From an uncultured Planctomycetota bacterium (lineage in GTDB: Bacteria; Planctomycetota; UBA11346), in NCBI GenBank assembly GCA_903902515.1, contig CAIUVD010000253.1, positions 1 through 57,117 of the forward strand: a stretch of 57,117 nt of DNA. The letters are read 5' to 3'. The position numbers were made by a program, and so were the translations under genes. Shown here piece after piece: positions 857 to 34,069 of the stretch (position 1 is its first letter; the number at the start of each line of letters is the position of its first letter). The notes under the pieces are model-generated. The model was not told the origin of the DNA. It made no database searches and was given only the letters and a program-made list of their open reading frames with translations.

Positions 857-3800
857 TCATTGAGATTTTCTACGTCGAAACCCTATGAATACGCCGGTCA
901 ATATCATAGCTAGACCAACCCCAGAACCGCAGCCTCCTCCACCATCGGCCAACAGTCGACCATCAGAGTCCGCCACCTGGTCGCTGATAGTTAAATCAAC
1001 GGAAGCACCGCGCATTTCGCCCGTTACATCAATTCGTATAGACTCGTCTTCCTCGTGAATTCCATCGTTTACGACCGCAACAATGAACGATATCGAAGAC
1101 ATTTCACTTTCGGAATCGGGAAGCGTCACAGATACAGGAAGCCCCGAGTAGTCATCACCCGCTGTGGCAGTACCACTCGCCGAGATCTTATAGGTGGTTT
1201 TTTTCGGCCCAGTAACGGTGACCACCGCCGTTGAAGACGGCTCATTCAAGCTACGAATCGAGGTCGTCACCGATACGCCCATTTCATCATCAAGTATTCC
1301 TACCTCACCGGAACTTTGGGCTCCCAGTGCGTAACCCTCACCGATCGTCAACATCACCGTTACAATTTCCGAACCTTCACGGAGCCGATCATCAACAGGA
1401 ATGACCCGCAGTCGGGCCACGTGATCCAGCCCGCTCTCCTTGGCAGGAATTGAGAATGTCAGAACACCCGACGTAGCGACGGCCGGGGTTACCTCACCGC
1501 CAGCAACGACTTCCAAGATGTAATCAACCTCAAAAGTAGCAGTCCCCGCCACCGCCATAGCCACCACGATGGGCCTCTTTATCACCCTATCACTCCCGAT
1601 CACCAACTCGCCCCCACCGGCCGAAACGGAATCTTCGTCAATGGTAAATGACGATGATGTAAATTGCAACGTCGGTTCATCATCGTGTATACTCACGGTA
1701 CCTGAGGTGGTGCCACCCACGACATAACCTGCGCCGGCCATGAGGATCACCGTCACGGACTCTTCCCCTTCGCCAAGAAGATCGTCGATAGGCGTTACCA
1801 TGAGCTTCACCTCCTTACTCGTCACCGAGGGGGGGAACACCAATGCACCGACCCCCAAGGGCGCTATAAACGAGGCCCTCATGCCATCGATTTCCGTCGT
1901 CAAGACGTAGTCGACATCTAAGGTCGCAGACCCCTCTACTCGAAGAGCAACCGTCACAGGTTGTGTTAGGAAATGATCACTCACGACAGCCAGCTCGCCC
2001 ACCTTTGGAGATAACGGATCCTCAGAAGCAATGGCCCGGGAGGATATCAAGCTCAACGTTGGCTCATCATCGTGAATCGTCACGGTGCCCGAGTCCGCCG
2101 ACCCGATCATGTAACCCGTTCCAGCAGCCAAGGTCACTTGAACAACTTCTTCCCCTTCAGCGATGTCATCATTGAGAGCGGTCACCAGAAGCCGAACCTT
2201 TTGGCTCGTCGCTGACTCGGGAATCTCCAACGAACCCACCCCACGAGATGTGACAACTGGTGATGTCACACCACCCACCTCCACGCTCAAGATATAGTCG
2301 ACATCTATGGTAGCAGTACCCGCCACCATGACGTTGAGGATTAAGGATTCCTTAACGGCCGTGCCGATACCAATCATCAACTCACCCAAAGAGGAGGTTA
2401 CGGGCGCCTCCGACACGGCGGACGTGGGCGAAAGGAAGCTGATCGTCGGCTCGCTGTCCTCTTGAATGGTCACCGTACCGGAATTCAAGGGGCCAACCGT
2501 ATAACCTTCACCAGAATTTAGGGTCACCGTCATGAATTCGTGAGGCTCCGCTATCGCATCGTGGATGGGCGTTAATCGAAGCACCGCGAGCCGACTTAAC
2601 TGAGTAACGGTGGGGGGTATCACCAGCGAACCCGTGCCTGACGTTATGAGGACGGATGATGACGCCCCACCCACAATGACACTCAAAGCGTAATCGGTGT
2701 CGACACTGGCAGTGCCCCCGACCAAGAAATTGATGGTCGTAGCATGTTTTATGGCACCGGCACTGCCGATAATTAATTCACCAACCATCGGACTTACCGG
2801 ACTCTCTGACGCAATGGCCGCGGACGAAGTAAAACTTAGGGTCGGCTCATTATCTTGAATGGTCACCGTTCCGATTTTTCTTGGCCCGATGGCATAGCCT
2901 ACACCAGCAACCAATGCCACTCTGACCTCTTCCGAGGGTTCACCCACGGCATCATCAATGGGAACCACCACGAGCCTGACCTCCTGGGCTGTTGCCGATG
3001 CAGGGATGCTGAGGGAACCGGAACCCGATCTGACCGTAACCAAGGAGCTCACCCCACCCACAACCATTTTTAACTGATAATCCGCATCTATGCCTGCACT
3101 GCCCGAAACTGTGAAATTCAGTGTCACGGGCCTCTTCACAGGGGTATTGCTGCCAATGATCAACTCGCCAACCCTTGGTGGATCCGAATCTTCAGAGACC
3201 ATGGAGGAGGAGGATTTGAATCCGAGGATCAATTCATTATCTTCAATGGTAATCTCCCCCGAACTCGTGGCCCCCCTCCAATAACCAACACCCGCATTCA
3301 GGGACAACAGCACGGACTCATCCGACTCTATTTCGGTATCATCAAGGGGCGTTACCTGCAACACGGCAAGCCGATTCAATTGCACAGCGGTGGCAGGAAT
3401 GACAAAAGAACCAACTCCCGAGGCGATGACAACCGACAACGTTTCGCGTCCCGTGATCACTCTCAGGAGATAATCAGCGCCAGGAACCGCAGTGCCTGAC
3501 ACCGCAACATGGACCGTCATTGGCCTCTTGATCGCCATGTTACTGCCAATGATCACCTCACCAATCCTGGGCGACGTCGGATCTTCAGATGCCGTGGACG
3601 ACGATGAGGTAAAATTCAGGACCGGCTCATCATCCTGAATGTTGACTGTCCCAGAACTCTCACCACCCAAGCCATAGCCAGTTCCTGTCATCAAGGTAAC
3701 CGTAACGGTTTCCTGACCCTCACCGATGGAATCATCATTCGGCACAACGAGGATTTTTGCAACCTGGTTCGTGGCCGAGGCAGGGATAACGAACGACCCC

Positions 3801-6364: not shown

Positions 6365-6858
6365 AAAACCCCCTAGACTCAAAGAAAATGACCGAAATGA
6401 TCGGTTATTGGTTGTTTGATTTCGCCCGCGATGTCATCGGCTATTTATATTAACTTGAAATCCCATTTCCTAGTCATTTATAAGCAGGTCTATGCCATTA
6501 ATGACCATCTTCACATTGGAATTATTTTTGTTATCCTTAGATGATGTTGTGCCGTTTCCCTCTCTATAAGGTCATTTCCCAGACTCTTGTCGTAGTCTGG
6601 AACCCAGATCATTACGAATGACGCTTTTGAACGCCACGATGAGGATCTCAACCTCTTCGACTTCACGACCTGATATCATTCGCTGATGGCCATTTTCGAA
6701 CACCTGGAGCCCGAAAAAATCCAACGATGAACCATGAAGGGCTCTCATTTCCCTCGTATTCAAGCCGCCTGAGGGCGCCAAGCCCGCGCATCCCCCTTCG
6801 GTACATCGCCGCGATTATTTTTGCGGTAAAATACCCTGACCACTTATGGCATCAACCT

Positions 6859-7518
6859 ATGCACCATACCTCATTTAAATGCAAGCCACTGATCCACAAT
6901 GGCTTCACTCTCATCGAGCTCCTAGTGGTGATTTCCATCATCGCCGTCCTTGCAGGCCTATTGCTCCCGGGGGTCAACCTCGTCCGTGCCAATGCAAAGA
7001 CCTCCAAGTGTGCCAATGCACAGCGCCAGGTGGTGCTGGCGTGTTACGGGTACGCAAATGACCAAGCCGGTGGGCTTCCAGCAACCCGGGTAAACAACAT
7101 GTATTGGTATGAGCTGATTGAGGACTACCTCGAAGGAAAAAAGAGCAGCTACTACCAAGGAACCGTGATTCGTGGCTGTCCGGAATTCACCTTTGACCTT
7201 GCCGACACCACCGCCTTCTCCTACGGCACCAACACCTTCCTTGCCTACGGTGGCGGTGGCAACTCGAACAACCTTCACAACCGGATTGGCGGAAGCTTTG
7301 GAGCTCTCAACTTTACCGAATTCAATGCCGGCACAGTGACGAAGCAGACCTCACGCGTCTATTTCGCGGATACCGACGCTTTCTGGACCGGATCCTCTCC
7401 ACCGGTCACTGACCTGGAGGTACGGCACCGTGGTAAACTCGTGGTCACCTTTGTGGATGGCCATGGCGGTCGACAGACCCTCGCGGAGGCCACCGCAGGC
7501 GTCGTATCCCCTCCGTAA
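6859..7518 (+). CDS. Prepilin-type N-terminal cleavage/methylation domain protein with H-X9-DG motif
   Basis: NG|FTLIELLVVISIIAVLAGLLLP N-terminus and C-terminal H-RGKLVVTFV-DG. Clear paralog of 68..709. Start taken at ATG 6859. Confidence 0.92.
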   Translation: MHHTSFKCKPLIHNGFTLIELLVVISIIAVLAGLLLPGVNLVRANAKTSKCANAQRQVVLACYGYANDQAGGLPATRVNNMYWYELIEDYLEGKKSSYYQGTVIRGCPEFTFDLADTTAFSYGTNTFLAYGGGGNSNNLHNRIGGSFGALNFTEFNAGTVTKQTSRVYFADTDAFWTGSSPPVTDLEVRHRGKLVVTFVDGHGGRQTLAEATAGVVSPP

Positions 7519-7699
7519 GCAAATCTTATACGCATGCCCGTAGTTGCGCGATTGTGCTCCGATTTGCGGTCGATGCCTGACAGCTCCGGGGTGAAAATTT
7601 GGAAGCCTGCATCGAGGAGGCCATCAATGGACCTTGCATTTCTTCCTCGGTCTAGGCGTGTCCAATCGGTCGGCCGAAAACGGCTTAGACTCACCTCTC

Positions 7700-8120
7700 G
7701 CCACACCAATGCCGATCACTTTGCGGCTCGTGGCATTCTCCCTGGCGTAGACGTAAACCTCGGCCCGGACGACGTCCGGGGAACCTCCGGCAACCATTTT
7801 CCATGCCGTTATGTGAATTTTTTTCCTCCTTCTGGTGATGGTACCGTGACCCAAGCAGGCGTCAGCATCGCCCCTGAGCTTCTTCATCAGGAGGATCACC
7901 ATCGAACAGCGATGGCCCTTCAAGGATCTCTCACCCGAACCTCCGACCTTTGACGCCATCATGGCTGCCCGGCCACCACAAGAGCGCCAGTCCCCATGAG
8001 GTTCGGCTTCGGTCGCGACCCCACGAGCGAGCTGCCCGTGGTGTTCGTGGGGGCATCAACGGGATTAGGCCCAATGATGCTATTCACCGACCTGTCGAAC
8101 CCCGGAGTCGTCAATCCGCG
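7700..8120 (+). pseudogene. Possible decayed remnant of another prepilin/H-X9-DG paralog
   Basis: One frame reads RGILP ... (TGA 7951) ... HGCP-x9-FGFG ... VVFVG ... LSNP, matching the motif order of the neighbouring paralogs. No intact pilin N-terminus. Confidence 0.3.
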
Positions 8121-14029: not shown

Positions 14030-14162
14030 AAGCGGTCACGATCAAGTTGAGCCCGGGGAGGGCAATGGTGCGCGAGTGTTACGGTTCTCCTGGCAGACCG
14101 CCGGGTTTGGGGACATCCTGGTGGACTACCTCCCTCTTTTGCCGCGCCGTCCTGGCTGGACC

Positions 14163-15113
14163 ATGCCGACCATGATCGCCATTGCTCACGACCGCCAGCT
14201 GCTCGGAGTCCTGGCTGTCTATGCCGTCGTGGTGTTTTCGGGGCTCAAGAGTTTTGCCCTGTGGGACCAGGTCCGGTTGCTGCTCGATGCCAGTCCCTTG
14301 GCGATGATCCTGCAAGGGCATCCGCACACCCTGCGGTTTCTGGTGGTGCAGCCGGCGGTGATGGCGGATCGGCTCGGAATAGACCCGGATCCGGCATGGA
14401 CGTTGTGTTGTTTTCTGTTGGTAGTTGCCACGGCCCTTTTGTGCGCCCGGGCGGCAGCACTCATAAAGGGGCCAGGCCACCTTATCGCGAGCGATAAGGT
14501 GGCCTGTCCCCTTTGTGGTGAGGTGGCCTTACGAGCCCCAGCCCTGGCCGCCCTGGGCTCCGTCAGCCTGTTCATGAACGGCCGGCTGATCCCAGCCTTT
14601 GCGGGGGTGGCCCTGGCGCTGGCCATCCTGGCCGAACGCCGGGCCGGGATCGCCCGCTGGACCTGGGTTCCGGGTCTGCTGGTGGCCCTGCTGCTGGCCT
14701 CGGTGAGCAGCGGGACCCTGGCAGTGGCCGTCGCAGCCTGCGTCCTGGCCTGGCTGGCGGCCCCGGGGACCTCCCGCTGGCTGGGGGCCGTCGTAGCCGG
14801 CCTCGGCGCGCTCCTGGTGGCGGCCGGGGCGTGGAAGGCGCTGGTCTTCTTCAAGGGCGACATCCTGGCGGCCCTCGCCCATGGGCCGGGGGCCTTTCTA
14901 GCCCCCCTCGGCGCGGCGGCGGGCGGGGTCATCCTGGTCCTCCTGGGCCTGGGGCTGGCCTGGGCCCTGGGCCGGGAGCCATCCCGCCGGCCGGTGCGTC
15001 TCGTCGTCCTGGCCGCCGCCGCCGCGGGCCTATTCGGCTGGTCGACCCTCGCGGTGGGCTTGGTGCCCGCCCTGGTGGTGCTGCTGGCCTGGGCAGCACC
15101 GGAGCCCGCGTAG
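14163..15113 (+). CDS. Polytopic membrane protein of unknown function
   Basis: About 9-10 hydrophobic segments with polar motifs HPHTLR, FMNGR and SVSSG. Start uncertain (14076, 14163 or 14172). Confidence 0.65.
   Translation: MPTMIAIAHDRQLLGVLAVYAVVVFSGLKSFALWDQVRLLLDASPLAMILQGHPHTLRFLVVQPAVMADRLGIDPDPAWTLCCFLLVVATALLCARAAALIKGPGHLIASDKVACPLCGEVALRAPALAALGSVSLFMNGRLIPAFAGVALALAILAERRAGIARWTWVPGLLVALLLASVSSGTLAVAVAACVLAWLAAPGTSRWLGAVVAGLGALLVAAGAWKALVFFKGDILAALAHGPGAFLAPLGAAAGGVILVLLGLGLAWALGREPSRRPVRLVVLAAAAAGLFGWSTLAVGLVPALVVLLAWAAPEPA
14462..14517. repeat. 56-bp palindromic (REP-like) element inside a CDS
   Basis: CATAAAGGGGC-CAGGCCACCTTATCGC-GA-GCGATAAGGTGGCCTG-TCCCCTTTGTG: a perfect 16-bp inner stem extending to 27 bp with two imperfect pairs. 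Confidence 0.85.
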
Positions 15114-15145
15114 ACTTTCGCCCTGCTCCGGGCACCATGGCGGCC

Positions 15146-15976
15146 ATGACCTTTCCCGCCGTCTGCCTCTCGATTGGTTCCTCGGACACCTCCGGCGGGG
15201 CCGGAATCCAAGGGGATCTCAAGACCTTCACCGCCCTCTCGATCCACGGCCTGTCGGTGATCACGGCCGTGAATGCCCAGGGATTGGCTGGTGTTGCCGA
15301 TGTCATGCCCATCCCCGAGGCCCACGTCCGGGCCCAGCTGGAGGCCCTGGAAACCGATTTCACTATCGGCGCCATCAAGGTCGGTTGGTGCCCCACGGTG
15401 GACGTGATGCGAGTCGTCGGCCGCTGGCTGCGCCAGCACCCCCGCATCCCGGTAGTCCTCGATCCGGTGGCCACCGATGGCCGGGGCATTCCCCAGATGA
15501 CCCCGGAAATGGTCGAGGCCCTACGCACGGACCTGCTGCCCCGGGCGACCATCGCCACCCCCAACCGCTTCGAAGCCGCCCTGCTGGCCGGAATGGAGGA
15601 GTGCCTGACCCGCGAGGACATGGAGGCCGCCGCCATCGCCCTGCGGGACCGCCACGGCTGTTCGGTGCTGGTGACCGGCGGCAGTTCCGGCACCGAGGCC
15701 CTGGACGTGCTGGCGGCCATCGACGGCCTGCGCCACTTCTCGACCCCGGCCCACCCTCGGCCCAAGGTCCATGGCCAGGGCTCGTGCCACGCCGCCGCCA
15801 TTGCCGCCGGCCTGGCCCGGCACGACGGCCTGCGGGAAGCCATCGTCGCCGCCAAACTTTACATCGGTGCGGCCATTGCCGCCGCCCCGACGACCACCAC
15901 CGACCGCTCGGTGCTGTGGCATGCGGTGACGGTCCGCGAACAGGTCATCGCGCCGCCGGTGGCTCAGGATCCGTAA
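15146..15976 (+). CDS. thiD: Hydroxymethylpyrimidine/phosphomethylpyrimidine kinase
   Basis: IGSSDTSGGAGIQGDLKTF, VITAVNAQ, IKVG, VLDPV, TPNRFEA and HGQGSC. Confidence 0.88.
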   Translation: MTFPAVCLSIGSSDTSGGAGIQGDLKTFTALSIHGLSVITAVNAQGLAGVADVMPIPEAHVRAQLEALETDFTIGAIKVGWCPTVDVMRVVGRWLRQHPRIPVVLDPVATDGRGIPQMTPEMVEALRTDLLPRATIATPNRFEAALLAGMEECLTREDMEAAAIALRDRHGCSVLVTGGSSGTEALDVLAAIDGLRHFSTPAHPRPKVHGQGSCHAAAIAAGLARHDGLREAIVAAKLYIGAAIAAAPTTTTDRSVLWHAVTVREQVIAPPVAQDP

Positions 15977-16037: not shown

Positions 16038-16790
16038 ATGCTGTTGGCCCGCCTCGGCAACCTGTTCAAAGGTTTCCTCACCATCTTCGTCTCTAGCGTC
16101 GAGAAGAAGAACCCCGAGGTGCTGCTGGAACTGGAGAAGGAAAACCTCCGGACCCAGATCGGCCAGTACAACCAGGGCTTGGCCTCCCACGCCGGGATGT
16201 GCGAGCGCCTGATGAGCCAGGTTCGCAAGTTGGAACTCGACGAGCGCGACCTCCGGGCCAAGACCACTGCCCACCTCAAGGCCGGCAATCGCGAGGCCGC
16301 CGGACAGTACGCCCTGCGCCTCCAGACCATCGAACGGGAACTGGCGGAAAACCGTACCCAGTTAGAGCAGGCCGAGACCACCTACAAGGATCTGGTGAAG
16401 GCGCGCGATGTCTCCATCAGCGCCGCCAAGGCCAAGATCGAAGCCCTCAAGGGCGCGATTCAGGACCTGCGCATGAAGCAGGCCATGGCCGAGATGAACG
16501 AGATGGCCGCCGGCATGATCAGCCAGGTCGGTGGAGCCGGGGATACCCTCAACCGTCTCACGGAAATGGTCGAGGACGAACGCACCCACGCCGCCGGTCG
16601 GGCCCGGGTGGCCCGGGACGCCGTCGACATGGGCGACATCAAGCTGAAAGAGGCCGAGCAGACCGCCCTGGCGGACCAGGCCCTGGCGGATTTCGCCGCC
16701 AAGTCCGGCATGGCCATCGACGCCCCCGCCGGGGCCGCCCCGGCCGCCGCTCCCCGCACCATGGGCCCCTCCGTTTCCCAGGGGGCCTAA
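16038..16790 (+). CDS. PspA/IM30 (ESCRT-III superfamily) protein
   Basis: All-helical coiled coil of 250 aa with amphipathic N-terminus LARLGNLFKGFL, EKKNPE and A..HLKAGNREAA; AGGAG RBS. Confidence 0.85.
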   Translation: MLLARLGNLFKGFLTIFVSSVEKKNPEVLLELEKENLRTQIGQYNQGLASHAGMCERLMSQVRKLELDERDLRAKTTAHLKAGNREAAGQYALRLQTIERELAENRTQLEQAETTYKDLVKARDVSISAAKAKIEALKGAIQDLRMKQAMAEMNEMAAGMISQVGGAGDTLNRLTEMVEDERTHAAGRARVARDAVDMGDIKLKEAEQTALADQALADFAAKSGMAIDAPAGAAPAAAPRTMGPSVSQGA

Positions 16791-16793
16791 GTC

Positions 16794-18431
16794 ATGCCCA
16801 TGCCCGCCGGGGCGCCGGCCTGGGCCGTGCGCCTGGCCGAGGACTACGAAAGCGGCGCCGCCACCCAGTTCGTGCTCCATGGCGCGGTCGATGACCGCCT
16901 GCCCCAGGGCGATGGCCTCAAACCGGTGGCCGACTGGCTGGTGGAGGCCCTGCTGCCGTCCTTCCCGGTGGTCCTGCAGTACGACCTCGGCAATGGCCTG
17001 CGGGTGTTGCGCGGCACCGACCTGACGGGCCAGTGGTCCGGCTTCACCACGCCCCGCCAGCCCCGGCCGGCGGTCGAATCCATCTCCGGCTACTTGCGCT
17101 ACCTGCATAATCTGCGGGCATTGACCAGCGCCGTGCCGCCCGCCGTGGCGGTGCTGGTGCGTGGGGCGGAACAAGTCTTCCCAGCCCAAACCCCCGGCCA
17201 CGAACAGGCCGGCCTGGTGGCCCTGGTGCGGGAGTGGAGCACCGCCGCGCCCTTCCTGGACCTGCCCTTCGCCAGCATCCTGATCGCCGACAGCGTAGCC
17301 GATCTGAACCCCCTGCTGGCGCGCAATCCCGCGGCCAGCGTGGTCGAGGTCGGCCTGCCGGATGCCACCGCCCTGGGCCGGGGCCTCGACCTGCTGCGGG
17401 CCGCCCACCCGGCGGCCTTCCCCGCCGACCTGACCAGCGCCGTCCTCGCCCCGCAACTCAAGGGCTGTTCGTTAGTGGCGGTGGAATCCGCCGTCCGCCG
17501 GGCCGCCCACCGCCGTACACCCCTGGCCGCCAACGACCTCAGCTCCCTGAAAAAATCCCTGGTCGAGGGCGAAGCCAAGGACCTCCTCGAATTCCTGACC
17601 GCCGACCGGACCCTCGACGACTACCACGGCCAGGAAGCCCTCAAAACCTGGATCCGCCAGGACGCCGCCCTGTGGCGCAAGGGCGACCTCGCGGCCCTGC
17701 CCATGGGCTACCTGCTGTGCGGTCCGGTGGGCACCGGCAAAACCTTCCTGGTCGAGTGCATCGCCGGCGAGGCCGGGGTGCCAGTGGTCAAACTCAAGAA
17801 TTTCCGGGACCGTTGGGTCGGGTCGTCAGAAGCGAATCTCGAAAAAATCTTCCGCCTCGTCCACGCCCTGGACCGCTGCATGGTATTTGTCGACGAAGCC
17901 GACCAGAGCCTCGGCAAGCGCGAGACGGACAGCAGCGATGGCGGCCTAGGCGGCCGGCTCTACGCTCGTTTCGCCGAGGAAATGTCCAACTCCCGCAATC
18001 GGGGCAAGGTCATGTGGCTGCTCGCCTCGTCGCGCCCGGACCTGATTGAGGTCGACCTCAAACGCCCGGGCCGCATCGATGTGAAGGTGCCCCTGCTGCC
18101 CACCGCCACGGTCGAGGAATCCGCCAGCCTGATCGCCATGCTCGCCAAGCGGCGGGGCCTGCTCCTGGATGAGGCGGCCCGCGCCGTCCTTGCCCCGGGC
18201 CTGCCGGTGCGCCTCACGCCGGGCGCCGCCGAGGCCCTGGCGGTCAAGGCCTACCGCCTCGCCCAAACCCGGAACCTCAACGCCTTCGAGGCGATGACCG
18301 CTGCCTTAGAAGGCTGGCAGCCTCCGGTGCCGCCGGATGTCATGGAACGTCAGATGCGCTTGGCGGTGCGCGAAGCCAGCGACCTGGCCTTCGTCCCGCC
18401 CTCCTTCCGCCATCTCGCTGAAGCGCCGTGA
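16794..18431 (+). CDS. Classical-clade AAA+ ATPase with degenerate N-terminal domain
   Basis: Walker A GPVGTGKT, pore loop RWVGSSEANL, Walker B VFVDEAD and SRH SSRPDLIEVDLKRPGRID. Confidence 0.92.
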   Translation: MPMPAGAPAWAVRLAEDYESGAATQFVLHGAVDDRLPQGDGLKPVADWLVEALLPSFPVVLQYDLGNGLRVLRGTDLTGQWSGFTTPRQPRPAVESISGYLRYLHNLRALTSAVPPAVAVLVRGAEQVFPAQTPGHEQAGLVALVREWSTAAPFLDLPFASILIADSVADLNPLLARNPAASVVEVGLPDATALGRGLDLLRAAHPAAFPADLTSAVLAPQLKGCSLVAVESAVRRAAHRRTPLAANDLSSLKKSLVEGEAKDLLEFLTADRTLDDYHGQEALKTWIRQDAALWRKGDLAALPMGYLLCGPVGTGKTFLVECIAGEAGVPVVKLKNFRDRWVGSSEANLEKIFRLVHALDRCMVFVDEADQSLGKRETDSSDGGLGGRLYARFAEEMSNSRNRGKVMWLLASSRPDLIEVDLKRPGRIDVKVPLLPTATVEESASLIAMLAKRRGLLLDEAARAVLAPGLPVRLTPGAAEALAVKAYRLAQTRNLNAFEAMTAALEGWQPPVPPDVMERQMRLAVREASDLAFVPPSFRHLAEAP

Positions 18432-19234
18432 AATACCTGCTCGCCGCCTTCAATGCCCGGCCCCTGGGCCTGCTGGTGCCGCCCAACTGGATCGCCCTCG
18501 GGGTGGTCGGGCTGCTGGGGGTTTTCGTCAATCCCGGCTTCTGGCTGATCGGCGCCGGGCTGGAGGCGGCCTACCTGTGGGCGGTGTCGTCCCACCCCCG
18601 CTTCCGGGCGACGGTGGATGGCCCGGTGGTCGCGGCCCCGGACTTGCGCCATGCCCAGATGCTGGCCGGCCTGACGCCAATCGCCCGCAAGGCCCAGGAG
18701 GCCCTGGAGGCCCGGGGCGCGGAACTGGTGGCCATTCTCGCCCGCACGGGGGCCTTCACTGGCCAGGAGGAAACCGCCCAACTGTGCTGGTTGCACCTGC
18801 GGCTGCTGGCGGCCCGCAGCGGCGTGGCGGCGGTGGCCGGTGGTTCGATGCCGGAGTTGGCCGAACGCCAGGCCACCATCGACGCCCAGTTGGCCGACGC
18901 GGACCAGGACGACGCCACCCGGGGGAGCCTGGAGCGCCAGCGCGAAGTCCTGATCGAACGCCAGGCCAGCCTCAAGGCCGCCGTCGCCCGCCTGCGTTTC
19001 ATCGATGCCGAGCTAGAGCGCATTCGCCAGCAGTTGGAACTGGCCCGGGAGCAAGCCCTCTTGGCGGCCGATGCCGCCGGGCTGGCCCGCTCCGTGGACC
19101 TGGTGGCCGGGTCGTTGACCGAAGCCAACCGCTGGCTGGCCGACCGCCGCGACATCCTCGCCGACCTTGATCCCTTGGCCGAAGCCCCCTCGGCCCAACA
19201 CCTGTTCACCCCCCGCCCGGCCATATCCCAATGA
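18428..19234 (+). CDS. Two-TM membrane protein with C-terminal coiled coil
   Basis: Overlaps the AAA gene by GTGA; two N-terminal hydrophobic helices followed by a heptad-rich region. Confidence 0.8.
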   Translation: MKYLLAAFNARPLGLLVPPNWIALGVVGLLGVFVNPGFWLIGAGLEAAYLWAVSSHPRFRATVDGPVVAAPDLRHAQMLAGLTPIARKAQEALEARGAELVAILARTGAFTGQEETAQLCWLHLRLLAARSGVAAVAGGSMPELAERQATIDAQLADADQDDATRGSLERQREVLIERQASLKAAVARLRFIDAELERIRQQLELAREQALLAADAAGLARSVDLVAGSLTEANRWLADRRDILADLDPLAEAPSAQHLFTPRPAISQ

Positions 19235-20931
19235 TAACCACCTCCCGCCGTGGAGGCGCCCTCGGCGTCCTCCTAACCCTCGTGATGATCGCCGGCCTCG
19301 TGGGCCTGGGCGTATTCCTGGTCCTCAAGAAACCGGAACCCGCCCCGGCGCCTGCCGCCGCCACCCCGACGACGGACGTGACCGCCGTCGCCACCCCGGT
19401 GGTCGCCAAGCCCGAGGGCGCCATGCCCGCGCCGGTGGAACCGGCCCCGGGGGCCAAGCGTCTGGAAGCCGCGGCGCCCCACCAGGCCAAGAACAACGTC
19501 ATCGAACTCGACATCAGCGAATACGCGGGTTACGCCGGGCTGATCGTCGCCAACGGCGGCCTGGAACCGAACCCGGACTCCCTGTTCGCCAAGCAGTACG
19601 GTTTTCAGGTCCGCCTGCTCAACGGTGAAGCCGAAAACTGGGGAGCCGTCAACAACGGCAAGATCGCCGGCTGCGCCACCACCACCGACGTCCTGGCGAT
19701 CATGGGCCGCCAGTTCGAAGTCACCGTCCCGGTGCAGATCGCCTATTCGCGGGGCAGCGACGAAATCGTCGTCGATCGCGGCATTACCTCGGTGAACCAA
19801 TTGGCGGGCAAGGTCATCGCCGCCGAGCAGTTCAACGAAAGTGAGTTCTTTATCCGCATGCTGGCCCAGGAAGCCGGGATCCCGGTGAAGGTCCTGCGGG
19901 ATCTCGACGCCCGGCCCGCCGCCAATGAACTGGGCCTGGTGTTCTACGAGGACGCCTTCACCGCCTGTGACGCCTACCGCTTCGAACTGGCCGGCGCCCG
20001 CCGCCTGGCCGGGGCCGTCAGTTGGACGCCCAAGACCACCGAAGTGGTGGCCGCCAGCAACGGCGCGGCCAAGGTCCTGGTGTCGAACCGCAACCTGCTG
20101 GTGGTGGCCGACATCCTGGTCCTCAACCGGGCCTTCGCCGCCGCCAATCCCCAGATCGTCAAGGGCCTGACCCACGGCGTGCTGGAGGGTAACCGCCTGG
20201 TGCGCGAGAATCCCGAGCCCTACCTCGCCCTGCTGAACAAGGCCTTCAAGTGGAGCCCCGAGGACGCCCGGGAGGAACTCAAAAAAGTCCACTTCGCCAA
20301 TCTACCCGAGAACAATGCGTTTTTTAGCGGGACGATCGACGCCGCCGGATCCTTCGGCGGCATCTACCAGCAGGCGGTGATGGCCTATGGCCCGACCCTG
20401 GTCCCCAATCCCCCGGACGCCGAACGCTTTATTGACGCCTCGGGCCGCAAGACCCTGACGGACGACGGCTACCAGAAAGACGCCGCCATCGCCATCGCCC
20501 CGATCCGTACCTCGGCCCGGGGTGCGCTTGAGGGCGACGCCCTGCTGTCGAAGGACGTGCGCTTTTTCTTCGAACCAAACTCGGCGACCCTTGATGCCAC
20601 CAACACCGCCAATCCCGGTTACCTCGACACCATCCAGCGCTACCTCCAGGTCAGCCCCGGCTCGGTAGTGGTCCTGCGCGGCCACGTCGACGGCAGCCTG
20701 AGGGACCAGTTCCGCAAGGACGGCGGCGACGCCCTGGTCCGCAGCATGGGCCTCAAGGCCTTAGAGCTCTCGAAGCAACGGGCCCAGGCCGTCCGCGCTG
20801 CCCTGCTGGTCCGGCATCCCCGGATCGACCAAAGCCGTGTCGAGGCCGTGGGCCGGGGCTGGGAGGAACCCGCCGGCGGGTCCGCCGAACTCAACCGCCG
20901 GGTCGAGGTGAAGTGGTACACCGTCGAGTGA
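19231..20931 (+). CDS. Membrane-anchored periplasmic binding protein (NMT1/THI5/SsuA-like) fused to an OmpA-like peptidoglycan-binding domain
   Basis: N-terminal TM and Pro/Ala linker; SEYAGYAG, YSRGSDEIV and LAGKVIA; C-terminal FFEPNS, LRGHVD, LSKQRAQAV, GRGWEEP and NRRVEV. ATGA overlap with the upstream gene. Confidence 0.87.
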   Translation: MITTSRRGGALGVLLTLVMIAGLVGLGVFLVLKKPEPAPAPAAATPTTDVTAVATPVVAKPEGAMPAPVEPAPGAKRLEAAAPHQAKNNVIELDISEYAGYAGLIVANGGLEPNPDSLFAKQYGFQVRLLNGEAENWGAVNNGKIAGCATTTDVLAIMGRQFEVTVPVQIAYSRGSDEIVVDRGITSVNQLAGKVIAAEQFNESEFFIRMLAQEAGIPVKVLRDLDARPAANELGLVFYEDAFTACDAYRFELAGARRLAGAVSWTPKTTEVVAASNGAAKVLVSNRNLLVVADILVLNRAFAAANPQIVKGLTHGVLEGNRLVRENPEPYLALLNKAFKWSPEDAREELKKVHFANLPENNAFFSGTIDAAGSFGGIYQQAVMAYGPTLVPNPPDAERFIDASGRKTLTDDGYQKDAAIAIAPIRTSARGALEGDALLSKDVRFFFEPNSATLDATNTANPGYLDTIQRYLQVSPGSVVVLRGHVDGSLRDQFRKDGGDALVRSMGLKALELSKQRAQAVRAALLVRHPRIDQSRVEAVGRGWEEPAGGSAELNRRVEVKWYTVE

Positions 20932-21013
20932 CCGTACCCCGCACCGCCCCAGCCCGCGGGTGCCTTCCGGGGTGACAGGGGCGGTGCTTGCCCAGCATGG
21001 CTTCGGATTTCCC

Positions 21014-21655
21014 ATGACCGGACCCCGCCTCGCCGTACCCCTCCTCCTGGCCGCCGCCCTCGGTGCCGCCGACCCGGATGACCTCACCCCCAACGACCTG
21101 CGCCTCCAGGTGGGACTGCCGCCATCCAACGCGGAGATCACCTCCCGCCGGATTGGCAGCCAGGCCGAGCAGACGAGCACCATCACCTGGGAGGAAAGCG
21201 GGCGCTGGAGTCTGCAGTGGGTACCGCCGGTGGCCCGATTGACGCCCCAGAGCGACGGGATGTGCATCCTCGAGATCACCTCGACGCGCCTGGTGAGCGG
21301 CAGGACCGCCACCACGGATCCGTTAATTGCCCGGGCCGTCACCGGAGGCCTGCACCTCGGACTCGGCTGGGTGGTCCTGCAGAATACCACCCTTGAACTC
21401 ACGGCCTTTGGCAATGGGGGCATGGCTTGGCAGGAGGGCAGCGACCACTACGGCAGCGCTTGGGAAGTCGGAGCCCGCCTCGGCCTGACCTGGGCCCCCC
21501 TGGGTCTTGCGGGTGGGCGACCGTTGATCGGTGCCGCCTTGCTGGGCATGTACGGCCAACTCCAGCATCACGCCACCCTGACAAATCAGGAATATGATTT
21601 AACCGTCACCTCCAAGGGGTACTCACCGGCGGTCGTTCTCGGTTGGCGTTTTTGA
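21014..21655 (+). CDS. Probable outer-membrane beta-barrel protein
   Basis: Signal peptide, alternating amphipathic strands and a terminal VVLGWRF beta-signal. Confidence 0.7.
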   Translation: MTGPRLAVPLLLAAALGAADPDDLTPNDLRLQVGLPPSNAEITSRRIGSQAEQTSTITWEESGRWSLQWVPPVARLTPQSDGMCILEITSTRLVSGRTATTDPLIARAVTGGLHLGLGWVVLQNTTLELTAFGNGGMAWQEGSDHYGSAWEVGARLGLTWAPLGLAGGRPLIGAALLGMYGQLQHHATLTNQEYDLTVTSKGYSPAVVLGWRF

Positions 21656-21753: not shown

Positions 21754-24700
21754 ATGACTTCTCCCCATTGCGCCCCCTGGTCGAACCTCCTTCTGCGGCT
21801 GGTGGCCGGGCTGTTGCCCTGGCTCGTGCTATCCTCGCAGTCGCACGCGGCGACCGGTCAGCCGGATTATGCTCAAGCCATTACCGTTAATGACGATGGG
21901 ACGCTTACCTACGTTCCCAATCCGCGCGGGGACATGGTTCCGGATTTCTCGGCGGTAGGGTGGCGAAATGGGGATCAACCACTGCCCGGCCAACCCGGCG
22001 GCATCACCGTGCCGGTGGTCGTGACCCTGGACCCCGGCACGGGCGACCAGTCGAGCCGTATCCAGGCGGCCATCTGGCGGGTTGCCCAACTACCCCTGGA
22101 TGCGAACGGTTTCCGGGGGGCCATCCTCCTGAAAGCCGGGACCTGGGAGATCAATCGCACCCTTCTCATCGACCAATCGGGTATTGTTCTGCGGGGCGAA
22201 GGCCGGGACCCATCGGGGGTCCATACGCACCTCATCGCCACGATGATCACCAATGACGGCTATACCGGCGTCAGCCAGGGTGGATCCATGATCCGGGTCC
22301 GCGGCAACTTTGACGATACCCCGCGTTTCACCTCCGATGCCACCAGCATGGTGAATACCTCTCCCCAGACCTGGGACATTGTCGGCCGGGTGCCGGTGGG
22401 CGCGAAGTCCATCACGGTGTCATCTATTCCGACCCTCCAGGTCGGGGAGTTGGTCCGGATCCACCGGCCGGTGACCCAAAACTGGGTAGATGACGAGGGA
22501 CTGGCCTTCAACACCAGCGCCTACATCAGCGCCGGCCAAAACCAGGTGGCCCATCGTCGGGTCGTCAGCGTTGACGGGACCACGATCCACCTCAATGCAC
22601 CCATCACGTTGGCCATCGATCCGACGTATGGGGGCGGCAAGGTCCTCAAGGTGACCGCGGAGGGGTACATCCGTAACGTGGGCATCGAAAATCTCTACGC
22701 GACATCGGCTTACGCCAACCCCATGGACCAGAACCATGCCTGGAATGTGGTGGCCATGGAGCGTACCGAAGACAGTTACGTCCAGGACGTCACCGCCCGC
22801 TATTTTGGCTATGCGCTCTGCTACATCACCACGACGGCCCGCCAGATCAGCGTCGAACGGTGCCAGATGATCGATCCAGTATCCTGGGTTACCAATGGCA
22901 TGCATGAGAGTGGCCGCCGGATCCAGGATGCGGGGGGTAACCGCTATGCGTACTTGAATAATGGTGAACTGACCCTGGTCCGCGACAGCTACTCCCGCCA
23001 CTCGCGCCATGAGTTCCCGACCAGCTGGTTCCTGTCGGCCGGCCCAGCGGCGTTTGTGGACTGTCTGGGGGAAAACGGCCACAACGAATCCGGGGCCCAT
23101 ATTTATTGGACCACGGGCACGCTGTGGGACAACGTCCGGATGGAAAGCCTGCAGAACAAGCGGGAACGTCCGACGGGCAATAATGTCATCTGGAACTGCG
23201 TCCTCTACGGCGGGCCGAACATCGTTGAAAACGCCGTGACCGCGGTGAATTGGGCCTTCGGTTCGACCACCGCCAGCGGCGGGGCGGTCACCTTTTCGGC
23301 CTCCAATCCCCCCGGTGGCGTGCCAAGGAATCAGGGCGGTGAGATCTTCTCGAACGGCACCCGGATGAGCGTCCGCAGCCTGCACGATGCTCAGGTGGCA
23401 GCGCGACGGCTGGCCCAGGGCCTGACCTACACCCCCCGCACCACCCACCAGCGACCGGCCTTGGTTCCGATCCTTCCCACCATCACACCCTACGATGCGA
23501 CCGGCAAGGTCGGCACGGCGTTTTCCTATGCCGTTAAGGCCGATCCCATGCCGATCCGACTCAGCGGGGGCACCTACTACACCGCCACGGGACTTCCGCC
23601 CGGCCTCAGTATCACCACCGGGAATAATAAGACCTACGGCTACATCACCGGCACCCCAACCACCTCAGGCGACTACACCGTGACCCTGGTGGCCATCAAT
23701 CAGGACGGAAGTTCGACGCCAACGCCGGTCACGTTCACGATCCTATCGAGCACCGATAGCACCACCTTCCCCTTGAGTCTGAGCCTGCGGGCGGACTACC
23801 CGGATGGGTTCCGTTACGACACCATGGTCGTGACCCCCATGACGGCCAACTACGACCGCAACGGAGATCTCGATTTCACCAATAATGTCGATCCAGCCCT
23901 CGATGAGACGGGGGTGGTCGTGCCGGTGACGGTGGTGGCCTCCCACCAGTTCCCCGCCCTGCGCATCCCGATCACGGTGACCTACAATGGCTCCGCCACC
24001 CTGCCCACGGACCCCGGTTCCTACACCGTGACCGCCACGTCGACCAACCCCCTCTATCCGGGCACGGTGACGGACACGTTGATCATCAAAACTCCAGGAT
24101 CGATCTCCCTGGGTAATCTCACCAGGACGTACAACGGCTCCGCCCAAGCCCCCAGCGTCACCACCACGCCCGCAGGGTTGACGGTCGATCTCGTCTATGA
24201 AACGCCCGACGGCCCGACCACCACCGCCCCGACGCTTCCGGGCGCCTACACCGTCCGGGGCAGCATCCGGGACCCGGCCTACGCGGGAAGGACCACCTCC
24301 AATTCCACGGATTTGCGGCTGTTCGTCATCAACAAAGGCAGTGCCACCATCACTCTGGGGTCCCTGAGCCAGACATGGAATGGCTCCGCCCGTACACCGA
24401 TCGCTACCACCGTTCCTGCAGGCCTGACGGTCACCTATGCCTTCACCAAAGACGGGGTGCCGGCGGCGGCCATTGAACCCGGCACTTATGCCGTGACGGC
24501 CACCATCGATTCCCCCCTCTACGCCGGCACCCGCACTGGCACCCTGACCATCGCCAAGGCCCCTGCCACCATCACCCTCGGTAACCTGACCCAGGCCTAT
24601 GCCGGCAGTGATCTCGTTCCGACGGTGACCACTGTTCCCCCAGGCTTGGCGGTCGTGATGTCGTATAACGGTGGGGCTCTGACGACAGTTCAGCTTCCCG

Positions 24701-27540
24701 GAACCTACTCCGCCACCGCCACGATTAATGACCCCCACTACCAGGGCGCCAACTCCTCCCCGTTCACCATCACCAAGATGACCGGCCAAGTGCTGCTGGA
24801 AACGGCCGACCTGGCCCAGACCTATGATGGAACACCCCGAGTGGTCAGGACGACCACCATCCCGCCAGGATTGGCGGTGGTCCTTCGCTATAATAGTGCT
24901 GAAAACGTCACCAATGCAGGCACCTACGCGGTAAGCGCGACCCTCAACGACCCCCTGTACCAAGGCACGTCGACCCCGGCGAACCTCGTGGTGGCCAAGT
25001 TACCCACCACCATCACCCTCGACGATCTGGCTCAGGATTTCACGGGCGGTCTGCGACCCGTGACCACCTCGACCATCCCCTCGGGTCAAACGGTGGTCGT
25101 CACCTATGATGGACGTTCGACGGTGCCCTCGGCCGTCGGCGTTTATGCCGTCAGCGCCACCGTCAACACCACCAATCACTTGGGGACTGCCACCGGGAGC
25201 CTGATGGTGCGGCCGGTGATCACCACCATCAGCAATCTGTTCGGCAGCGTCGGCCAAGCCTTCACGGCCACCATCACCGCCACCGGCAGTCCAACAGCCT
25301 TCGGCGCGAGTTCCCTGCCCAGCTGGCTGACCGTGAACCCGAGCACGGGAGCCCTGACCGGCACCCCGACCACCGCCGCGTCGGTGACCATCACCCTCAC
25401 GGCCAGCCGCACCACCACCGGGGGCACCGCCACCGGCTCCAAGGAGGTGACCATCAGCGTCCTGCCGAGTGGCCAGCAGATGACCTGGCCGACGCCTGGG
25501 GCGGTGCCCTACGGGACGCTCCTCGGGTCTTCCCAGTTGAACGCCACCAGCACCGTGGCCGGTAGTTTCTCGTATGACCCGCCGGCGGGAACCCTGTTGC
25601 CGATCGGCAGTCAGACCCTGCGAACCACATTCACCCCCACGGACACCAGCACCTACAGCACGGTGCAGCAGACGGTGACCCTGACCGTGACCAAGGCGCC
25701 AGTGACCGTGACGGTGGCCAATGCCAGCCGGGTATATGGAGCCGCCAATCCGACCTTCACCACCAGTGTCAGCGGCCTCGTCGGGACGGATGCCCTGGCC
25801 AGTGTCACCCCCACGACCACGGCCATCGCGACCTCGGCAGCGGGCACCTACCCCATCACCGCTACCGCCCCGAGCCTGACCAGCGGTTCCGCCAGCAACT
25901 ACACGGTGACGGTCGTTCCAGGAATTCTGACCGTCAGTCCGGCACCGTTGACGATCCGGGCCGGGGATGCCACCCGGACCTACGGCAGCGCCAATCCCGT
26001 ATTCACCAGCACGGTCAATGGCTTGGTGGGCGCGGACACCATCAGCTCCGTTTCCATGACCACCTCAGCCGGGGCCAGCACGCCGATCGGCCCCGCCTCG
26101 ATTATCCCGGGGACCCCGACGTTCGCGGTTGGCCGGGCCAGCAACTACGCCATCACGGCTGAAAATGGCACGCTGACCATTACCGCCGCACCCCTCACCG
26201 TGTACCTGGACCGTACCGTCTACCGGGTGCAGGGCGGATTGGATGCCACCATCAATCCCAAGGCCACCGGACTGCAGGGGTCTGACCGGCTGGCAGGAGC
26301 TGACATCGCCTATCCGGCCCAGGATGTGGCCGTGGGGTCCTATCCCTTGCCCCTCAGCAATGCCCGTCTCGCCGTCGGCTCCCTGGGCAATTACACCATC
26401 TCCTATTCGGCCGGCACCCTGGTGGTGGTGGATCCCCTGAGCGTCACCATCCCGGTGATCACCTGGGCTACCCCCTCAGCCGTCACCTACGGCTCCGTGC
26501 TGGGGACCTCCCAACTGAATGCCGTGGCGGATGCCGCGGGGACCATCACCTACGACCCCCCCCTGGGAGCCTTGCTGGGAGCGGGCACCCAAACCCTGGT
26601 CGCCACCTTCACCCCCGACAATCCCGCCCTGGTCGCTCCGGCGACCACTAGCGTGAGGCTGGAGGTGCTGCCCACCCCCCTGCAGATCACCGCCCTCGCC
26701 GCCAGCCGGGTGTACGGTGCCACGGATCCCGTCTTCACGGCTCGCCTCACGGGTCTTCAGGGAACAGATGCCGCCACCACGGCGGTCACGACCAGCACGG
26801 ATGCCAGCACTCCAGTGGGGCTCCAGGTCGGCAGCCTCACGCCGACGATCGTGCAGTTCACGGTCGGCAGCCTGAGCAACTACGCCCTGACCACGGTCCT
26901 GGGGGATCTCCAGATCACCCCGGCGAATCTGACGATCACCGCCCGGGATGCGACCCGCGTCGTCGGGACTGACAATCCGGAATTCCCCTGCCTGGTCACG
27001 GGACTAGTCAGCGGGGATACCCTCGAACCGATCCTGGCCACCACCACGGCGACGGTGGACTCGGTGGCGGGGGCCTATGCCCTCACCCCGTCGGAACCTC
27101 GTTTCCTCACGGGAAGCGCGGGAAACTACCGGATCACTCTGACCAACGGCCGCCTGGCCATCACGGAGGCGATGCCCGTAATCACCTCGGCCCTGGTCAC
27201 GGGCATCGTCGGCCAAGCCGTGCGACACCAGGTGGCCGTCTCGTCCACCACCCGGTGGTTCAGTGCCAGCGGATTGCCCGACGGACTGACCATCAGCTCC
27301 ACCGGGTTGATTGCGGGGATCCCCTCCACTGCAGGACTTTTCCTGGTGACGGTGGATGCCCAAAACCAAGCCGGCCGGGGCAGCGGCACGATTTCGATCC
27401 TGATCACCGAGGAGGCCTTCCCCGTTGGAACCAGCGAGGATTCCTCCAGCACCCCTGCCTCCTGCGGGTCCGGCACCGCTCTGGTGGGCTTGATCGGGCT
27501 GCTGGGCCTGGCCCTGACGGGCCGGCGGCGGCGCGGCTGA
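21754..27540 (+). CDS. Secreted beta-helix (pectin-lyase-fold-like) protein with putative-Ig and MBG-like repeats and CGxG C-terminal sorting signal
   Basis: Signal peptide; GDMVPDFSAVGW, IQAAI, GAILLKAG, GIVLRGEG, NVGIENL, GNRYAY and GTLWDNV; Ig repeats (ATGLPPGLSI...ITGTPT) and MBG-like repeats (YNGS...P...G.Y.V.AT; ASRVYGAANP.FT); tail ASCGSG-TM-RRRR. Confidence 0.82.
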   Translation: MTSPHCAPWSNLLLRLVAGLLPWLVLSSQSHAATGQPDYAQAITVNDDGTLTYVPNPRGDMVPDFSAVGWRNGDQPLPGQPGGITVPVVVTLDPGTGDQSSRIQAAIWRVAQLPLDANGFRGAILLKAGTWEINRTLLIDQSGIVLRGEGRDPSGVHTHLIATMITNDGYTGVSQGGSMIRVRGNFDDTPRFTSDATSMVNTSPQTWDIVGRVPVGAKSITVSSIPTLQVGELVRIHRPVTQNWVDDEGLAFNTSAYISAGQNQVAHRRVVSVDGTTIHLNAPITLAIDPTYGGGKVLKVTAEGYIRNVGIENLYATSAYANPMDQNHAWNVVAMERTEDSYVQDVTARYFGYALCYITTTARQISVERCQMIDPVSWVTNGMHESGRRIQDAGGNRYAYLNNGELTLVRDSYSRHSRHEFPTSWFLSAGPAAFVDCLGENGHNESGAHIYWTTGTLWDNVRMESLQNKRERPTGNNVIWNCVLYGGPNIVENAVTAVNWAFGSTTASGGAVTFSASNPPGGVPRNQGGEIFSNGTRMSVRSLHDAQVAARRLAQGLTYTPRTTHQRPALVPILPTITPYDATGKVGTAFSYAVKADPMPIRLSGGTYYTATGLPPGLSITTGNNKTYGYITGTPTTSGDYTVTLVAINQDGSSTPTPVTFTILSSTDSTTFPLSLSLRADYPDGFRYDTMVVTPMTANYDRNGDLDFTNNVDPALDETGVVVPVTVVASHQFPALRIPITVTYNGSATLPTDPGSYTVTATSTNPLYPGTVTDTLIIKTPGSISLGNLTRTYNGSAQAPSVTTTPAGLTVDLVYETPDGPTTTAPTLPGAYTVRGSIRDPAYAGRTTSNSTDLRLFVINKGSATITLGSLSQTWNGSARTPIATTVPAGLTVTYAFTKDGVPAAAIEPGTYAVTATIDSPLYAGTRTGTLTIAKAPATITLGNLTQAYAGSDLVPTVTTVPPGLAVVMSYNGGALTTVQLPGTYSATATINDPHYQGANSSPFTITKMTGQVLLETADLAQTYDGTPRVVRTTTIPPGLAVVLRYNSAENVTNAGTYAVSATLNDPLYQGTSTPANLVVAKLPTTITLDDLAQDFTGGLRPVTTSTIPSGQTVVVTYDGRSTVPSAVGVYAVSATVNTTNHLGTATGSLMVRPVITTISNLFGSVGQAFTATITATGSPTAFGASSLPSWLTVNPSTGALTGTPTTAASVTITLTASRTTTGGTATGSKEVTISVLPSGQQMTWPTPGAVPYGTLLGSSQLNATSTVAGSFSYDPPAGTLLPIGSQTLRTTFTPTDTSTYSTVQQTVTLTVTKAPVTVTVANASRVYGAANPTFTTSVSGLVGTDALASVTPTTTAIATSAAGTYPITATAPSLTSGSASNYTVTVVPGILTVSPAPLTIRAGDATRTYGSANPVFTSTVNGLVGADTISSVSMTTSAGASTPIGPASIIPGTPTFAVGRASNYAITAENGTLTITAAPLTVYLDRTVYRVQGGLDATINPKATGLQGSDRLAGADIAYPAQDVAVGSYPLPLSNARLAVGSLGNYTISYSAGTLVVVDPLSVTIPVITWATPSAVTYGSVLGTSQLNAVADAAGTITYDPPLGALLGAGTQTLVATFTPDNPALVAPATTSVRLEVLPTPLQITALAASRVYGATDPVFTARLTGLQGTDAATTAVTTSTDASTPVGLQVGSLTPTIVQFTVGSLSNYALTTVLGDLQITPANLTITARDATRVVGTDNPEFPCLVTGLVSGDTLEPILATTTATVDSVAGAYALTPSEPRFLTGSAGNYRITLTNGRLAITEAMPVITSALVTGIVGQAVRHQVAVSSTTRWFSASGLPDGLTISSTGLIAGIPSTAGLFLVTVDAQNQAGRGSGTISILITEEAFPVGTSEDSSSTPASCGSGTALVGLIGLLGLALTGRRRRG

Positions 27541-33595: not shown

Positions 33596-34069
33596 ATGAC
33601 CCCCCGCACCGTCGCCTGGGCCTGGCTGGTGCATGGGATCCTGGTGGTGGTACTGGCGCTCATGCTGGAGCCGATGGCCGATCAGGTGCAGTCCGAGGCG
33701 TGGGCCGACGCCATGAGCCTGCTGGGAGCGGGAACCTTCATCCCGCCCCTTCAGGCCGTCATGCCGCCCCTGGCAGCCCTCGCCCCCTTGGTGGCCGGGG
33801 TTGGAGCCGCTTGCGTCATGGCCGCCGTCGTGGCCTTCCGCTGGGGATTGCGCTGGCCCCTCCAGACCGTGGCCGTGGCCCATCTTGTTCTGCTGCCCCT
33901 CGCCACCTGGTGGACCCGCCGTCAGGTCGAGGCGGTGTGGCCGGCGACCACTGGGGAACTCGTGGCGGAATGGGTGACGACCGTCCTGTGCCTCGTGCCG
34001 GTGGTGGTGGGAATGGTGGTCATCCACCGGGCTCGGCCGGCGACGTCGGCGAAACCCGCGCCGCCTTGA
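33596..34069 (+). CDS. Small four-TM membrane protein of unknown function
   Basis: Starts 1 nt after the lpxC-fabZ stop; four hydrophobic stretches. Confidence 0.65.
   Translation: MTPRTVAWAWLVHGILVVVLALMLEPMADQVQSEAWADAMSLLGAGTFIPPLQAVMPPLAALAPLVAGVGAACVMAAVVAFRWGLRWPLQTVAVAHLVLLPLATWWTRRQVEAVWPATTGELVAEWVTTVLCLVPVVVGMVVIHRARPATSAKPAPP

Follow-up and report, generated by a model that had tools for sequence, protein, structure and literature searches.

A reduced PspA operon with its own tandem AAA+ ATPase, a candidate membrane-remodelling module in an uncultured Planctomycetota bacterium

We analyzed a 57,117-nucleotide stretch of DNA from an uncultured Planctomycetota bacterium (assembly GCA_903902515.1, contig CAIUVD010000253.1; hereafter the window) and focused on a four-gene operon at positions 16038-20931 of its forward strand. 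The operon encodes a PspA protein of the ESCRT-III superfamily (gene 1), an AAA+ ATPase (gene 2), a predicted membrane-anchored helical protein (gene 3) and a TauA/SsuA-type binding domain fused to an OmpA domain (gene 4). We read it as a PspA-type membrane-remodelling module whose own tandem AAA+ motor likely recycles or reshapes PspA polymers by way of their conserved C-terminal tail, a proposal for which we regard the evidence as evenly balanced. Its observed basis is the gene content, the linkage and co-inheritance of the PspA and ATPase genes, an ATPase layout with a dead first (D1) and an active second (D2) module, substrate-threading motifs and a PspA tail motif.

Results and discussion

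PspA and its ATPase are encoded side by side and inherited together

The four open reading frames lie on the + strand at 16038-16790 (250 amino acids, aa), 16794-18431 (545 aa), 18428-19234 (268 aa, with GTG as start codon) and 19231-20931 (566 aa). An earlier note, made from the letters alone, had described four tightly coupled genes, and both the coordinates and the junctions were confirmed: genes 1 and 2 are separated by a 3-nt gap (TAA-GTC-ATG), followed by GTGA and ATGA at the next two junctions. The operon has a GC content of 68-70%, which equals the host level. Scanning it for promoters and terminators gave no excess over shuffled sequences.

The synteny is conserved well beyond the window. 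A scan of GTDB genomes seeded with the ATPase yielded 27 loci, 15 of which carry all four genes in the same order; these 15 come from Gamma- and Alphaproteobacteria, Desulfobacteraceae/Desulfatirhabdiaceae, Anaeromyxobacter and Acidoferrum records. We combined the 27 loci with 40 stretches from a search of the phylum (40 of the 58 matches outside the window genome) to obtain a set of 67. PspA was the most constant neighbour of the ATPase gene (52/67 loci), followed by gene 4 (38), gene 3 (35) and a permease (21). Three locus types stood out: 16 four-gene loci without ABC transporter genes, 17 six-gene loci with a permease and an ABC ATPase, and 14 loci with PspA and the ATPase alone. The genes that flank the operon in the window were not found in the related stretches.

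Co-inheritance was examined in 401 genomes of the phylum. The ATPase family and the PspA clade were each present in 59 genomes; 56 genomes held both, three the ATPase only, three PspA only and 339 neither. Because 27 of the 56 double-positive genomes had contributed rows to the PspA profile, the informative part of this count is the 339 double blanks together with the other 29 genomes. Gene 1 is the one PF04012 gene in the window genome, which is 91% complete. As stated in the earlier note, no pspB, pspC or pspF gene flanks the operon. PspB was not found anywhere in the window genome and no PspF scored above the cut-off; two genes with a PspC domain are present on other contigs, unlinked to the operon.

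Some loci combine the genes in other ways. Seven relatives from the same family (L211, L212, L214, L215, L218, L220 and L222) carry gene 3 and gene 4 as a pair apart from the PspA and ATPase genes, and L063-L065 combine the close PspA/ATPase pair with a gene 4 of the ABC-linked type. In an Opitutales variant (L019:3150-13732), PspA and the ATPase lie downstream of an ABC transporter that has a binding protein of its own, and are followed by a divergent fusion of binding protein and OmpA, a VWA-like gene, a further binding protein and a gene for a transmembrane (TM)-coil protein; the Opitutales PspA tails end in KAGM in place of the tail motif described below.

The ATPase combines a predicted dead and a predicted active AAA+ module

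Gene 2 had been described as a classical AAA+ ATPase with an RWVG pore loop and a second region of homology (SRH) typical of substrate-threading AAA proteins. Both elements are present, and the description fits the C-terminal half (D2; 17574-18431, +). PF00004 matched residues 306-432 with 83.9 bits, and the Walker A motif GPVGTGKT is encoded at 17721-17744. In an alignment of 62 homologues, from which L011, L020, L021, L023, L027 and L028 were left out as frameshifted, cut or near-identical, K316 of Walker A, D367 and E368 of Walker B and the SRH arginines R424 and R427 were invariant (62/62). Pore-loop position 341 was W in 55 and Y in 7 homologues. Gene 2 therefore has the Walker A and B motifs, the aromatic pore loop 1 and the SRH arginine fingers that define the classical AAA clade.

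The earlier description had overlooked a second module in the N-terminal half (D1; approximately residues 1-260, 16794-17573, +). The AlphaFold model of gene 2 (predicted local distance difference test, pLDDT, 92.5) starts with D1, and this half has the strand and helix order of AAA+ proteins. At the place of Walker A we found a conserved F-x-L-x-G-N-V-x-D, and none of the 62 homologues has G-x4-GK[ST] in D1. From the model and the alignment, gene 2 is a tandem AAA+ protein of Cdc48-like layout in which D1 is predicted to be catalytically dead and D2 to be active. Foldseek aligned it over its full length with the D1-D2 tandems of p97, Cdc48, Rix7 and Drg1 (~560-600 columns, E ~1e-19 to 1e-20, template modelling score up to 0.61), and sequence profiles agreed, with Cdc48/p97-type D1-D2 enzymes as best matches. 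Cdc48/p97/VAT, Rix7 and Drg1 thus share the tandem and match best in both sequence and structure, but the window ATPase differs from them by the lack of an N-terminal barrel, the dead D1, an identity of 14-18% and its position on a separate branch; the Cdc48-type model TIGR01243 scored 68 bits against a cut-off of 803.

The comparison with Vps4 gave a different picture. No MIT domain and no Vps4_C domain (PF09336) was matched in gene 2 by the Pfam library; the same library finds PF09336 in L231:4558-5784. The CdvC model NF041006 scored 33 bits against a cut-off of 650. In trees of the active module the ATPase family formed a single long-stemmed clade (22 rows, Shimodaira-Hasegawa-like approximate likelihood ratio test 99; 7 rows, 100/100). 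One clade of seven family ATPases and ten bacterial Vps4-like rows was rejected (approximately unbiased test, p=0.00027), the Vps4 side of this tree consisting of bacterial Vps4-like proteins, with no eukaryotic or archaeal Vps4. The 'Vps4-analogous' ATPase of the earlier note therefore stands as a functional analogy, whereas kinship does not follow: the family does not group with the bacterial Vps4-like proteins, and its Cdc48-type layout sits on a branch of its own. Ycf46-type ATPases may be further relatives of the family.

Two plasmids, L162 (NC_014628.2) and L163 (CP017425.1), encode ATPases of about the same size with no annotated PspA gene within 5 kb. The Paenibacillus enzyme of the two is the sister of the family in the tree and aligns with the window ATPase along 97% of its length (25% identity). 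An Atlas search with the N-terminal half of the ATPase returned one AAA-labelled cluster at 0.90, which we note as a lead.

ATPase-linked PspAs carry a conserved tail motif

Gene 1 (16038-16790, +) belongs to the PspA/IM30 family. PF04012 matched it with 53.6 bits (cut-off 33.9), and its profile matched Vipp1/PspA structures (E 4e-11). The N-terminal helix 0 is amphipathic, with a hydrophobic moment of 1.39 over residues 2-21, and the protein has no TM segment. We infer that it polymerises and remodels membranes as PspA and Vipp1 do.

A Pro/Ala linker follows helix 5 and leads to the motif R240-T-M-G-P244 (16755-16769, +). The same arrangement recurs among ATPase-linked PspAs, in which a variable Pro/Ala/Glu linker after helix 5 is followed by [KR]-x(1-2)-[MLI]-G. 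This linker-borne motif was present in 44 of 49 aligned tails (L021, L027, L069 and L074 were left out), with a single spacer residue in 39 of them; shuffled tails averaged 1.7, with no more than 8 in any of 1000 shuffles. Loci that consist of the PspA and ATPase pair only retain the motif. As controls we used the 30 best PF04012 matches of 151 genomes. Five of these turned out to belong to the same PspA clade, and all five have the motif, although four are encoded apart from their ATPase. When the tails of the remaining 25, from other clades, were read by eye, no linker-borne copy was seen. Passages of Liu et al. (2021; PMC8281802) describe the binding of Vps4 by the C-terminal MIT-interacting motif (MIM) region of ESCRT-III. 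By this precedent, [KR]-x(1-2)-[MLI]-G is a candidate docking or threading handle for the ATPase.

Gene 3 encodes a predicted membrane-anchored helical protein

The model of gene 3 (18428-19234, +; pLDDT 81) has helices at residues 19-33 and 37-55 followed by a helical bundle at 70-239, and hydropathy peaks at residues 16-40. We predict an N-terminal hydrophobic helical hairpin and a bundle that would lie on the cytoplasmic side; with the conserved synteny, this makes the protein a likely membrane anchor for PspA. The family is large (1169 clusters at E<=0.001), and no Pfam family scored above its cut-off for the window protein or for 33 diverse members. For 132 close members the same held among the best 25 of 82 families, which did not include Snf7.

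We looked specifically for a relation to ESCRT-III, since a comparative study discussed below had given such proteins a 'Snf7' label. The Snf7 model PF03357 did not match gene 3; it does find a Snf7-like gene elsewhere in the genome G081. Comparison with the PspA profile by hhalign gave a probability of 1-3%, and a Foldseek search gave no match at E<=0.001. A deep gene 3 profile matched no ESCRT-III chain among solved structures at E<=10, and none occurred among the best 50 VIA rows for the model, results that are compatible with a distant relation. The best fold match (VIA Z 9.0) was to designed helical proteins and lies within the range of common arrangements. The 'Snf7' label was thus not reproduced, given the missing PF03357 match and the insignificant PspA profile comparison. 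In the Atlas the nearest named cluster was Rv2743c/PspM (score 0.88; 185/256 features; family on 40% of the cluster), which is a lead only; with HMMER, PF25587 (PspM) matched neither gene 3 nor 33 relatives.

Gene 4 joins a binding domain to an OmpA domain

Gene 4 (19231-20931, +) has a single N-terminal TM helix (residues 13-31) and no lipobox cysteine, and appears anchored in the inner membrane. Its profile matched TauA (6ssy, E 3e-15) and OmpA (3td3, E 4e-16). PF00691 covers residues 446-555 (36.7 bits), and TIGR01728, the model of SsuA/TauA-type binding proteins, gave E 2e-10, under the family cut-off. The residues that align with the Asp and Arg of 3td3 are conserved (D487, 30/31 proteins; R517, 31/31). 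In OmpA, this Asp and Arg take part in peptidoglycan binding. The peptidoglycan tether proposed in the earlier note agrees with this conservation; 'ligand sensor', like the 'adaptor' and 'recycling' roles that it assigned, is a function that we infer.

Phylogeny separates two types of gene 4. In a tree of 54 rows (without L007, L011, L015, L018, L020, L021, L026 and L027) the 36 proteins with no cognate permease next to them group in a single clade, separate from the 18 that do have such a neighbour. This split counts as a single event in evolution, and several loci extend only a short way beyond the gene. The window-type proteins are further set apart by distinct conserved motifs and by an insertion of 12 residues (13/13 against 1/18 of the ABC-linked proteins), and identity across phyla is 57-60%. 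These features indicate that the window-type protein is under selection without its transporter, although both types occur together in two genomes.

In seven loci (L216:4344-5878, L217, L223, L224, L226, L227 and L228) a window-type binding protein is preceded by two paralogous helical proteins of ~250 aa, which align with each other at 95% in hhalign and start with a TM segment or a lipoprotein-like signal. Conceivably they are PspA-like proteins that are exported, a reading faintly hinted at by one PF04012 match at E 0.007; hhalign to PspA gave 3%.

A mechanism and its alternatives

How might these components work together? PspA would bind the inner membrane through helix 0 and polymerise like PspA/Vipp1, and the gene 3 protein would keep the polymer at the membrane or seed it there. 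In the ATPase hexamer the [KR]-x-[MLI]-G tail might dock on, or enter through, the dead D1 ring, and the D2 pore would pull PspA subunits through, so that Vps4's job would be done by an unrelated enzyme. Gene 4, parted from its transporter, could anchor the site to the cell wall and perhaps also detect a ligand in the periplasm. A bolder form of this idea, which we put forward tentatively and with some doubt, is that the family evolved separately from Vps4 as a bacterial motor dedicated to taking ESCRT-III polymers apart. The dead AAA ring would then replace the MIT domain and read the PspA [KR]-x-[MLI]-G tail as MIT reads the MIM, and the binding protein of the four-gene form, formerly part of an ABC system, would act without a transporter as a sensor or anchor that is tethered to the wall and places the polymer across the envelope.

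Several points weigh against PspA as the substrate of the motor. Linkage and co-inheritance cannot separate a substrate from a regulator, and the genomes are related, so that the counts are not independent events. Six of the 25 control PspAs show the motif pattern no later than the end of helix 5; the motif may accordingly be a duplicated helix cap and not a handle for the ATPase. Five of the 49 tails have no motif (loci L005, L018, L019, L096 and L098). Correlation across 26 loci and the window gave Spearman coefficients of 0.82 for PspA and gene 3, 0.80 for PspA and the ATPase, and 0.74 for gene 3 and the ATPase. Gene 3 and the ATPase thus follow PspA about equally well, and gene 3 is as good a candidate for the partner of the tail.

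These points lead to the alternative that we take most seriously, although we consider it unlikely: PspA could be an adaptor or regulator that gates the ATPase, and the ATPase would extract or assemble an envelope client, namely gene 3, gene 4 or, in the long operons, the ABC transporter. A precedent exists in E. coli, where PspA regulates the AAA+ protein PspF, as described in passages of a 2025 review (PMC7619361) and reflected in the titles of references cited by Liu et al. (PMC8281802). The covariation of gene 3 with both PspA and the ATPase fits such an arrangement, as does the position of gene 3 directly upstream of the ATPase gene in many long operons. However, the 14 of 67 loci with PspA and the ATPase alone have none of these clients beside them. 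Gene 4 follows the other three genes poorly (Spearman 0.44-0.56), which suggests that the envelope part is exchanged while the core is kept together. Taken with the permease searches below, this indicates that those clients are dispensable whereas PspA is kept.

Next comes the possibility, improbable in our view, that the module still serves solute uptake, with gene 4 passing its ligand on to an ABC transporter whose genes lie at another site and with PspA and the ATPase reshaping or maintaining the surrounding membrane. The dedicated permease and ABC ATPase in 17 of the 67 loci speak for it, together with the TauA/SsuA-like fold of gene 4, the unrelated NitT/TauT-type permeases in most four-gene genomes and the presence, in G197 and G229, of a window-type binding protein that stands alone, in addition to the six-gene system. 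Yet cognate permeases, when held out, score 298-387 bits (17/17), whereas the best matches in the window genome and ten other four-gene genomes reach only 25-199 bits, three genomes having none above 74. No cognate permease was found in the 91% of the window genome that is covered, where the best match (167 bits) has its own binding protein; 'orphan', as the earlier note called gene 4, remains apt. The 36 window-type proteins, with their distinct motifs and insertion, never adjoin the cognate permease.

That the operon is an anti-phage or toxin-control module with the ATPase as an IetA-like sensor seems very improbable: the patchy distribution across phyla and weak IetA model matches (36 bits; 20.5 bits against a cut-off of 510) would suit it, but these matches are confined to the P-loop region, and no protease, nuclease or other effector gene emerged as a conserved neighbour.

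Relation to known systems

Against this background, a motor that would act on PspA can be compared with systems described before. Passages of Ravi et al. (2024; PMC11237479) report PspA next to a protein of two AAA domains, one inactive and the other active, to which a membrane-anchored 'divergent Snf7' protein is added, and longer operons with an ABC ATPase, a permease and PBPB+OmpA. The operon given there (section 18, Text S2.2 and Table S3 row OGG56892.1) comprises PspA, 'inactive-Classical-AAA+Classical-AAA', 'SIG+TM+Snf7', 'SIG+PBPB+OmpA' and ABC components; the linked ABC permease and ATPase are optional in the text, and section 18 proposes ESCRT-like ATP-dependent remodelling. The four gene types and the ESCRT-like inference are the same as for the window. 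Using profiles of the window genes, we found the six-gene order of OGG56892.1 in 8 of the 17 six-gene loci, a recurrence that ties gene 3 to 'SIG+TM+Snf7' by position alone. The operon of the window differs from that system in that it lacks the ABC permease and ATPase, has another gene order and carries a binding protein of a separate clade. It is a reduced variant, without ABC genes, of a computationally described system. The tail motif and the ABC-less form do not appear in the passages and table of Ravi et al. that we compared. Where the earlier note knew of no functional characterisation, our searches of the open literature likewise found no experimental study of this ATPase family, but the gene set and the ESCRT inference had already been published.

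The likeness to ESCRT-III and Vps4/CdvC lies in an ESCRT-III-superfamily polymer gene beside a classical AAA+ ATPase with an aromatic pore loop, and in a short conserved motif in a flexible C-terminal tail; the window ATPase is distinct in having neither MIT nor Vps4_C and two AAA modules instead of one. With E. coli pspFABC and mycobacterial PspA-PspM (Rv2744c-Rv2743c) the operon shares a PspA with a membrane partner, but in the window genome no PspB or PspF was found, the PspC-domain genes are unlinked, and gene 3 is unmatched by PF25587.

In other genomes of the phylum, but not in that of the window, we noticed Snf7-like genes beside one or two Vps4/CdvC-like ATPases (L230:4371-7577, G081:C20; L231:2031-6562, G197:C42). 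Pfam Snf7 matched there at E 9.5e-6, slightly under the cut-off, and in one of the ATPases Vps4_C scored above its threshold. Of 201 genomes, 41 carry a homologue of L231:5966-6559, and in 31 of these 41 cases a listed match to the CdvC model lies within ~5 kb. Passages of Makarova et al. (2024; PMC10936438) describe systems of Snf7 with Vps4/CdvC-type ATPases as confined to archaea and eukaryotes.

Genomic neighbourhood

Upstream of the operon, a thiD-like hydroxymethylpyrimidine kinase gene (15137-15976, +) stops 61 bases before pspA and is itself preceded by a gene for a membrane protein without known family (14076-15113, +). We considered a link to thiamine salvage through the thiD-like gene and rejected it, as thiD and two other flanking genes were unmatched in 80 stretches (67+13). 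Downstream lie a 231-aa signal-peptide protein that resembles a small outer-membrane barrel and has no family match (20960-21655, +) and a repeat-rich surface protein of 1928 aa, which has Cys-Gly and a hydrophobic/basic tail at its C-terminus (21754-27540, +). The GC content falls to 48-59% at positions 1-8000 and 34001-42000 of the window, against 62-73% elsewhere, which suggests acquired islands.

Significance for bacterial ESCRT-III-like systems

Whether bacteria possess a counterpart of Vps4 has been discussed repeatedly. The 2025 review states, in the passages concerned, that bacteria appear to lack a Vps4-like regulator of PspA assembly (PMC7619361), and Liu et al. leave open whether any ATPase has a Vps4-like role there (PMC8281802). 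A bacterial equivalent is described as absent or open in passages of PMC10936438, and none is named in the matched passages of PMC13051332. To the earlier comparative work our analysis adds the near one-to-one co-inheritance of PspA and the ATPase, the tail motif, the permease-free gene 4 clade and the finding that the Snf7 label of gene 3 is not reproduced. The ATPase family, previously flagged by comparative genomics, is a concrete candidate for a Vps4-like role in bacteria. If it does disassemble PspA, this would represent convergent evolution of ESCRT-III recycling.

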